From: Candidatus Heimdallarchaeota archaeon
GTDB taxonomy: Archaea; Asgardarchaeota; Heimdallarchaeia; JABLTI01
Assembly (NCBI GenBank): GCA_019058275.1
Contig: JAHLVW010000012.1
Coordinates: forward strand, 1-61,807
DNA length: 61,807 bases
Direction of reading: 5' to 3'
In this document: piece by piece, positions 91 through 1,613 of the stretch
Layout: each line of letters starts with the position of its first letter
Position numbering within the stretch: the first letter of the stretch is position 1
The notes under the pieces: generated by a model
Told to the model about the DNA's origin: nothing
What the model saw: the letters and a program-made list of their open reading frames with translations, nothing else
Database searches by the model: none
Made by a program: the position numbers and the translations under genes

Positions 91-1613
91 GAGGAGGTGA
101 TCCAGCCGCAGGTTCCCCTACGGCTACCTTGTTACGACTTTTGCCTCCTAATATGCCACCGTATTGACTGCCGCATTAAATCAGTAGCCTCAACCATGAC
201 ACGGTTGGTTGCAACGACGGGCGGTGTGTACAAGGCGCGGGGACGTATTCACCGTGTCTTGATGAAACACGATTACTAGGAATTCCATATTCATGCGGTT
301 GAGTTGCAAACCGCAATCCTGACTGAGACCGGCTTTCGGGATTGGCTTCCTCTCTCGAGGTTGCAGCCCATTGTACCGACCATTGCAGCCCGCGTGTAGC
401 CCTAATCTATCGGAGCTTTAGCGAAAGTGGCTCGCAGCCAGATTTCTATACTGACCTGCCGTTGCCCACTCCTTCCTCTGGTTTAGCACCAAGCAGTCTC
501 TGCAAGGTTCCCGGCATCCCTAAGGGATCCGCTGGCAATTGCAGATGTGGATCTCGTTCGTTGCCTGACTTAACAGGACACTTCACAGCACGAACTGTCG
601 ACGGCCATGCACTTCCTCTCGGCGAGTTAGCTAAAGTCATTAGCTTGAGCTTCATCCTGCCGTCTGATTAGGTGAGTTTTTCGGCGTTGAATCCAATTAA
701 ACCGCAGGCTTCACTCCTGGTGGTGCGCCCCCGTCAATTCCTTTAAGTTTCAGACTTGCATCCGTACTCCCCAGGTGGCGGACTTAACGCCTTCGCTGTG
801 GCACCGCAGTGGCTCTTGACCACCGCAACACCTAGTCCGCATCGTTTACGGCTAGGACTAACCGGGTATCTAATCCGGGTCGCTCCCCTAGCTTTCGCCC
901 CTCACCGTCGAATACGTTCCAGACAGATGCCTTCGCCATCGGTGGTCGCCATGGGATCACTGGATTTCACCCCTGCCCCATGACTACCTCTGTCCTCTCC
1001 CGCTTCCAAGACTAGCGGTATTCCCAGCGAGCCAACAGTTATGCTGTCGGGTTTTACCAGGAACCTACTTGTCCGGCTACGAGCGCTTTAGACCCAATAT
1101 ACGTCCCGACCACTCGAAGAGCTGGTTTTACCGCGGCGGCTGGCACCAGCCTTGCCCTCTCCTTCCTTTCTCAGCTTGTAATACTGAGCGACAGTCATCC
1201 GTAAGAATGACACTTGGAGTAGCCCACTCACACTTTCGTGCATTGGCGAGTTTTCGCGACCGCTAAGCCTCGTAAGGCTCGGCCCCTTGTCTCAGTGGCC
1301 GACTCTGGGCTCCGACTTCCATCGCCCATACCGATCGTCGCCATGGTGGTCCTTTACACCGCCATCAAGCATAATCGGCCGCAGCCCCATCCTAAGGCCC
1401 GTATCTAACGGCTAGCCGGTTTTCGGAAAGATACCGTTCCAGGCCAAATTTCCTATCGGGTATTATCCACAGTTTCCCGTGGTTGTACCCGTCCTCAGGG
1501 CAGATTGACTACGTGTTACTGAGCCGTGCGCTAGGTGCTCCATTCCGCACCTTTAACTAGCGTGACTTAGTCCTACTCCAATAGCAGTCGGGTCCGGCAG
1601 GATCAACCGGTGT
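91..1613 (-). rRNA. rrs: 16S rRNA, archaeal, divergent (Asgard-like), containing a 31-nt insertion
   Basis: The + strand shows the reverse complement of the archaeal 3' end (GAGGAGGTGATCCAGCCGCAGGTTCCCCTACGGCTACCTTGTTACGACTT, from 91), the universal blocks GACGGGCGGTGTGTACAAG, CCGTCAATTCCTTTAAGTTT and TTACCGCGGCGGCTGGCAC, and the 5' end CCGGTTGATCCTGCCGG (~1593-1610). The ends are approximate. Confidence 0.98.
417..447 (-). other. Putative short hairpin intron in 16S rRNA at E. coli position 1205
   Basis: The sense strand reads GGTCAGTAT[AGAAATCTGGCTGCGAGCCACTTTCGCTAAA]GCTCCG, against the archaeal consensus GGTCAGTATGCCCCG. The insert folds as GAAA..TGGCT-GCG-AGCCA..TTTC and its junctions resemble a bulge-helix-bulge motif. 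Confidence 0.8.

Follow-up and report, generated by a model that had tools for sequence, protein, structure and literature searches.

Among the 13 intron sites listed for archaeal 16S rRNA genes is locus 1205 (Jay & Inskeep 2015, PMC4496867), where 17 short (<50 nt) hairpin introns have been described in Pyrobaculum, Thermoproteus, Desulfurococcales and Aigarchaeota (PMC4496867). In P. oguniense, the hairpin intron accompanies an endonuclease-bearing intron at site 1213, 8 nt downstream (Pog.S1205/S1213; PMC4496867). These “HP” BHB introns at 1205 are also credited to Nakayama et al. 2003, as cited in PMC4496867. Introns described in Asgard archaea include non-canonical BHB introns in tRNA genes (PMC11291895; bioRxiv 10.64898/2026.10.13.758758). 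Two paralogues of the splicing endonuclease EndA were present in 44 of 60 Asgard genomes, and relaxed motifs with 3 of 4 pairs were found to arise readily by chance if the borders are free (bioRxiv 10.64898/2026.10.13.758758). Non-canonical motifs are cut by (alpha-beta)2 enzymes (PMC5829648).

The DNA analysed here (the window, a stretch of 61,807 nt from a Heimdall-group Asgard genome) carries a complete archaeal SSU gene on its minus strand at positions 92..1613 (RF01959, 1326 bits, model positions 1-1478). The assembly is a metagenome bin of 4.12 Mb in 118 contigs (92.8% complete, 6.8% contamination), and its sole 16S gene is the window copy, the one SSU match in the whole genome. An Rfam search of window positions 1-8000 matched the SSU model alone, with no match to a group I or group II intron model. 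The closest 16S relatives of the gene were the genomes listed under the same genus, so the contig is consistent with its bin. The genome also encoded an actin that matched Pfam Actin end to end (448 bits). Among prokaryotes, such an actin is typical of Asgard archaea. A profile search for profilin, another Asgard marker, gave no match in any genome tried and was therefore uninformative. Comparison of the proteins encoded in the window with NCBIfam likewise gave no clue to the taxonomy.

Analysis of the gene with cmscan against RF01959 left about 31 bases unaligned within the 3′ strand of helix 34. The gap against the relatives revealed an insert of 31 nt at positions 417..447 of the minus strand (RNA base 1 at window 447, base 31 at window 417), and alignment with E. 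coli rrsH located it between U1205 and G1206 in E. coli numbering. The original prediction of 31 extra nucleotides at 417-447, after U1205 in helix 34, was thus exact in the alignments with the relatives and with rrsH. The borders place the inferred cut sites between 448/447 (5′) and between 417/416 (3′). Five relatives, consisting of three genomes of the same genus (G006, G009 and G010) and two of the same class, read GGTCAGTAT|GC[TC]CCGATA straight through, which fixed the borders at 447-417 and left no shift possible. The full-length alignment with the 16S gene of G009 showed a single 31-nt gap and no other indel, with exons about 93% identical, and removal of the insert restored the conserved exon sequence of the relatives. 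The insert was missing in all 19 other genomes of the class in which a 16S gene was found, and it contained no ORF. Its 31 nt are also too few for a group I or group II intron, which runs to hundreds of nt. No copy of the uninterrupted junction was present elsewhere in the genome, and 11- to 16-mers that bridge it were absent from the whole genome as well; on this result, the idea of a guide or spacer directed at this junction, as in a TnpB or homing scenario, was rejected. A repeat or mobile origin of the 31-nt insert was rejected too, as no second copy was found in the genome. The 16S processing stem, which was intended as an internal BHB control, was incomplete because the contig stops 91 nt past the gene.

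From 5′ to 3′, the insert consisted of A1, the stem h′ (GAAA/UUUC) around the hairpin UGGCU-GCG-AGCCA, the strand GCUA, and AA. Stem h′ was formed by intron bases 2-5 (GAAA, 443..446) and intron bases 22-25 (UUUC, 423..426), as indicated by both the family pairing and the fold, and the apical stem-loop occupied 428..440. This hairpin, with the two stems originally proposed (GAAA/UUUC and UGGCU/AGCCA), was the minimum-energy fold of the isolated insert (-6.9 kcal/mol). The central helix H joined the exon strand CAGU (exon positions -6 to -3, 450..453) to the intron strand GCUA (intron bases 26-29, 419..422) by three of four pairs (A-U, G-C and U.G), and the remaining C.A mismatch adjoined the 3′ bulge. 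The 5′ bulge AU|A with the 5′ splice site lay at 447..449 and the 3′ bulge AA|G with the 3′ splice site at 416..418. Outside the 3′ bulge, the strand CUCCG (411..415) formed a weak exon-exon helix h with exon bases at about 456-461, in an uncertain register; the BHB-constrained fold placed CGG-C-AG opposite CU-CCG. All of these elements are on the minus strand. The positions and spacing of the bulges were those of a strict BHB. Since the central helix had only 3 of 4 pairs and the exon helix flanking the 3′ bulge was weak, the structure fell under the relaxed BHB definition only, and the relaxed motif first proposed (AU|A, CAGU:GCUA with 3 of 4 pairs, AA|G) was recovered in full. The position of the C.A mismatch is that of the anticodon-intron pair of eukaryotes, which is required there for 3′ cleavage.

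With the borders fixed, at least three central pairs together with at least four h′ pairs appeared in 0.2-0.3% of shuffled or random 31-mers. The caveat that relaxed motifs arise by chance is offset here by the fixed borders and by the stem next to the motif. In contexts of 51 and 66 nt, the minimum-energy fold was another structure and not the BHB, and the BHB-constrained fold (-11.5 kcal/mol) was 0.5 kcal/mol worse than the unconstrained optimum (-12.0 kcal/mol). In this optimum, the intron segment CUGGCUGC formed 8 bp with GCAG-GUCAG of the 5′ exon (window 428-461), a pairing that could be due to chance, could be a competing structure, or could hold the exon strand before helix 34 forms. 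The window BHB, with two Watson-Crick pairs and one G.U, is the weakest of the locus-1205 family: the BHB-constrained energies of the other members ranged from -13 to -28 kcal/mol, and the BHB was the minimum-energy fold in 26 of 28 family members. We regard the competing local fold as qualifying the BHB reading and not as disproving it.

These other members came from a survey of site 1205, including the related Asgard 16S genes that the original prediction had suggested as a check, with a pattern that required the conserved 5′ exon and then a base other than G. Among 400 genomes of the window's phylum, matches were found in the host genome (G000), in G123 (33-nt insert) and in G397 (42-nt insert), the latter two belonging to two other families of the phylum. 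A match in G279 was rejected as a chance hit outside rRNA. In the species-representative genomes, a 61-nt insert was found in one Woesearchaeota genome (L027). The first pattern used for these genomes fixed GTAT and gave mostly chance bacterial matches, with L027 as the sole useful locus, and the fixed GTAT also explains why it returned no Thermoproteales. The metagenome scan matched 118 stretches, 80 of which were retrieved for analysis. At least 39 distinct inserts of 29-664 nt were resolved at site 1205, and a few more were added later. They came from hot-spring Thermoproteales-like sequences, three Asgard families, the Woesearchaeota genome, and sediment or soil archaea. The hot-spring members carried a 29-38-nt hairpin and a second intron exactly 8 nt later, the spacing of the published Pog.S1205/S1213 pair; they appeared to be the known Thermoproteales type and, taken as such, served as positive controls. 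Additionally, four distinct inserts (L060/L126, L083/L086, L117 and L089) were located in 16S genes that share 91-94% identity with the G123 gene, which indicated repeated use of the site in at least one further Asgard family.

All 39 inserts had a common layout with the geometry of a BHB intron, in which cleavage is expected to follow base 2 of each 3-nt bulge. The exon strand CAG[C/U] (-6 to -3) paired with the intron strand GCU[G/A/C] (-6 to -3; GCCG once), which was the consensus GCUG in 31 of the 39. The 5′ bulge was AU|A in 37 of the 39 and the 3′ bulge A[A/G]|G in every one. Stem h′ started at intron base 2 and ended directly before GCUR, and its first four pairs were formed without exception (39/39) from G-C, C-G, A-U, U-A and G.U, while the apical region varied in length and sequence across the family. 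When 28 short members were aligned with MAFFT, 96.7% of the cells were paired, compared with 34-51% when the 3′ partners were slid by 1-3 columns, and five of the six h′ pairs showed changes on both sides. The covariation score of these 28 members was 0.409 versus 0.212 in shuffles, and none of 500 shuffles scored as high, a figure that overstates independence because the alignment includes many hot-spring rows that are close kin. Neither the comparison with slid partners nor the variety of pair types depends on this kinship. The C.A (or C.C) variant of the central helix was found in 8 of the 39 inserts, of Asgard type, Woesearchaeota type and from soil, and in three more resolved later; the A form (C.A) of the window also appeared in L083, L117, L027, L077, L118, L101, L108 and L133. 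The C.A mismatch seems to be tolerated, since close relatives differed at this base (GCUG in L060, GCUA in L083 and GCCG in L089).

Long inserts at 1205 (134, 389 and 664 nt) had the same junction core, A...GCUGAA. The ORF of the 664-nt intron (L078:5515-6178, metagenome Ga0190307_1000339) showed two LAGLIDADG-like motifs by eye. A Pfam search with this ORF gave no match, so its endonuclease nature rests on the reading of the motifs. The 664-nt intron may represent a long form from which the hairpin introns were derived by deletion.

Compared with the described “HP” introns such as Pog.S1205, the insert in the window occupied the same point after U1205, was shorter than 50 nt and likewise had no ORF. 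The claim that 1205 is an established site of BHB introns, including short ones without an ORF, was borne out by the published survey (PMC4496867). The insert also shared with this class a first base A, a stem from base 2, the 3′ end GCUR-AA and the exon partner CAGY, and its 31 nt fell within the 29-38 nt of the hot-spring 1205 sequences. Unlike the hot-spring introns, it resides in a mesophile-type Heimdall-group Asgard archaeon, is AU-rich, has an h′ of 4 bp instead of 6-8 bp, and lacks the neighbouring 1213 homing-endonuclease intron of the hot-spring pairs. Its central strand is GCUA with a C.A mismatch in place of the consensus GCUG, and its predicted stability was -11.5 kcal/mol as against -22 to -28 kcal/mol in the hot-spring members. 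In the I-PogI system of 1205/1213 endonuclease introns, the resemblance lies in the long 1205 inserts, which share the core A...GCUGAA, whereas the window insert has no ORF and no 1213 intron after it. The non-canonical BHB introns of Asgard tRNA genes (PMC11291895; bioRxiv 10.64898/2026.10.13.758758) are similar to the insert in size (about 25-35 nt) and in the frequency of relaxed motifs, and the enzymes are presumed to be the same. The hosts are also alike in having a two-paralogue EndA, which is found in most Asgard genomes (bioRxiv 10.64898/2026.10.13.758758), but the gene interrupted here encodes 16S rRNA. No mention of rRNA introns was found in PMC11291895 or in bioRxiv 10.64898/2026.10.13.758758 (“rRNA” occurs 0 times).

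The host genome encoded the enzymes for such splicing. A genome search revealed two splicing-endonuclease paralogues (PF01974), encoded on the minus strand at L181:1207-1782 and L182:1474-2064. The 191-aa EndA was closest to the catalytic alpha chain of Aeropyrum pernix (3p1z_B, E 1e-42) and kept the Tyr/His/Lys residues. Its alignment was gapless through the crenarchaeal-specific loop, and a Lys was aligned with Lys44. In the 196-aa paralogue, Val replaced the catalytic His, as expected of a structural beta subunit. Judged from these sequences, the splicing endonuclease is predicted to be of the two-subunit, crenarchaeal type. The RtcB ligase was also encoded and intact (576 bits). ARAGORN found introns in 15 of the 38 tRNA genes of the genome, mostly of 23-35 nt, so the splicing enzymes have many other substrates of such size.

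We interpret the 31-nt insert as a protein-spliced BHB mini-intron of the locus-1205 hairpin class, with a probability of roughly 85%; its cleavage, the ligation of the exons and its loss from mature ribosomes are inferred from the gene and the family. In the pre-16S rRNA, the exon strand CAGU upstream of the junction would pair with the intron strand GCUA to form the short central helix. The intron hairpin, GAAA:UUUC topped by UGGCU:AGCCA, would stack on this helix and leave both junctions in the 3-base bulges AU|A and AA|G. RtcB would then join the exons and restore the GUCAGUAU-GCUCCG strand, so that helix 34 could form, and the excised intron would probably be released as a small ring.

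Alternatively, the hairpin could be retained in the mature 16S rRNA as an expansion segment, an extra arm off helix 34. The BHB is thermodynamically marginal, and Asgard large-subunit rRNAs are known for unusual expansion segments, which likewise place an extra hairpin inside an rRNA gene. However, expansion segments lie in variable regions and are kept among relatives, whereas the insert interrupts a strand of helix 34, which is universally conserved, is missing in genomes of the same genus and carries splice-site bulges. The family argues in the same direction: inserts of 29-664 nt occur at the same site, some with endonuclease-like ORFs, and bulges lie exactly at the borders in all of them. 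A retained arm would have no reason to conserve GCUR-AA|G together with a stem from base 2. Retention is therefore considered improbable.

The insert could also be cut out while the exons are not rejoined, so that the 16S rRNA works as two base-paired pieces. Cleavage and ligation are separate steps, which makes such an outcome conceivable, but RtcB is present and intact, and for the known members of the locus-1205 hairpin class both splicing and ligation are described (PMC4496867). We know of no report of a fragmented 16S rRNA in archaea, and this course of events appears highly improbable. Still less credible is an assembly error, or a pseudogene copy whose intact 16S counterpart was left unassembled: rRNA copies often collapse in metagenome bins such as this one, with its 118 contigs and 6.8% contamination, but an error would not place a properly formed intron of a known family at exactly its site, the rest of the gene matches RF01959 at 1326 bits and, with no other indel, shares 93% identity with a 16S gene from the same genus, and the assembly holds no second 16S copy, uninterrupted junction or other copy of the insert.

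If the mini-intron is spliced, an archaeon closely related to eukaryotes would need its tRNA-splicing enzymes to mature the small ribosomal subunit, and these would act within helix 34 in the subunit head, close to the decoding region. The original prediction had also suggested that such an intron was not well described in this lineage. This part stood insofar as our literature search turned up no account of BHB introns in the rRNA genes of Asgard archaea, the Asgard papers found being concerned with tRNA introns. The kind of element and its site, on the other hand, were already published, and the novelty is weaker than first claimed because the insert adds a further case to a widespread family whose site is known. 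The range of 1205 introns was widened from the published Crenarchaeota and Aigarchaeota to three Asgard families, a Woesearchaeota genome, and sediment or soil archaea. Inserts at 1205 make the 16S gene longer at a conserved position, which can upset annotation by alignment as well as the design of primers and probes. The recurring C.A variant additionally offers a concrete substrate for gauging how relaxed the Asgard endonuclease is.

The 23S gene of the same genome was located by BLAST with E. coli rrlH on contig C98 (L190:989-5270), and it was 4282 nt long compared with the 2987 positions of the model. A 62-nt insert in its sarcin-ricin loop (L190:4855-4916, contig C98 about 102354-102415) lay between GGUAC and GAGAGGACC. 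The central helix of this insert, CGGU:GCCA, had 3 of 4 pairs, with a C.A mismatch at the same helix position as in the 16S insert, and it was flanked by the bulges AC|A and AA|G and by a 5-bp h′ from base 2. The sarcin-ricin loop acts in factor binding, and an insert retained there would very probably disable the ribosome; the organism must therefore, very probably, be able to remove an insert of the relaxed type. The 62-nt insert also held two near-copies of the loop sequence that it splits, GUACGAG and UUACGAG.

A broader proposal links the 16S helix-34 and 23S sarcin-ricin inserts through the motif GCYAAA|G, which in both has a 3-bp helix and leaves a base unpaired where eukaryotes have the anticodon-intron pair. 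According to this proposal, which we put forward as a speculation that is rather unlikely to hold as a whole, the motif would be a regular substrate of the Heimdall-group endonuclease and not a product of decay, and ORF-less mini-introns at functional centres of the ribosome might persist by breaking the targets of homing nucleases such as the I-PogI type, which has the intron-less 1205 site as its cleavage target.

Two further stretches of extra sequence were observed in the 23S gene: about 843 nt near E. coli 23S position 1917 (L190:3021-3864), and about 260 nt between E. coli 23S positions 2347 and 2469, near the peptidyl-transferase centre (L190:4283-4666). Both are probably further introns, which would account for the conserved 23S motifs missed by the pattern search. 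In the 16S gene of another genome of the class (G033, L007:2036-2786), an insert of about 749 nt was located near window-16S position 748. It contained a 229-aa ORF matching LAGLIDADG_3 (E 7e-9) and thus looks like a classical homing-endonuclease intron. Second 16S inserts were also found near window-16S position 870, which lies in the region of the published loci 901-919: one of about 309 nt in G397 (L062:1114-1424), and one of about 633 nt in the Woesearchaeota genome (L027:5933-6567), the latter with a weak match to LAGLIDADG_3 (E 0.003).
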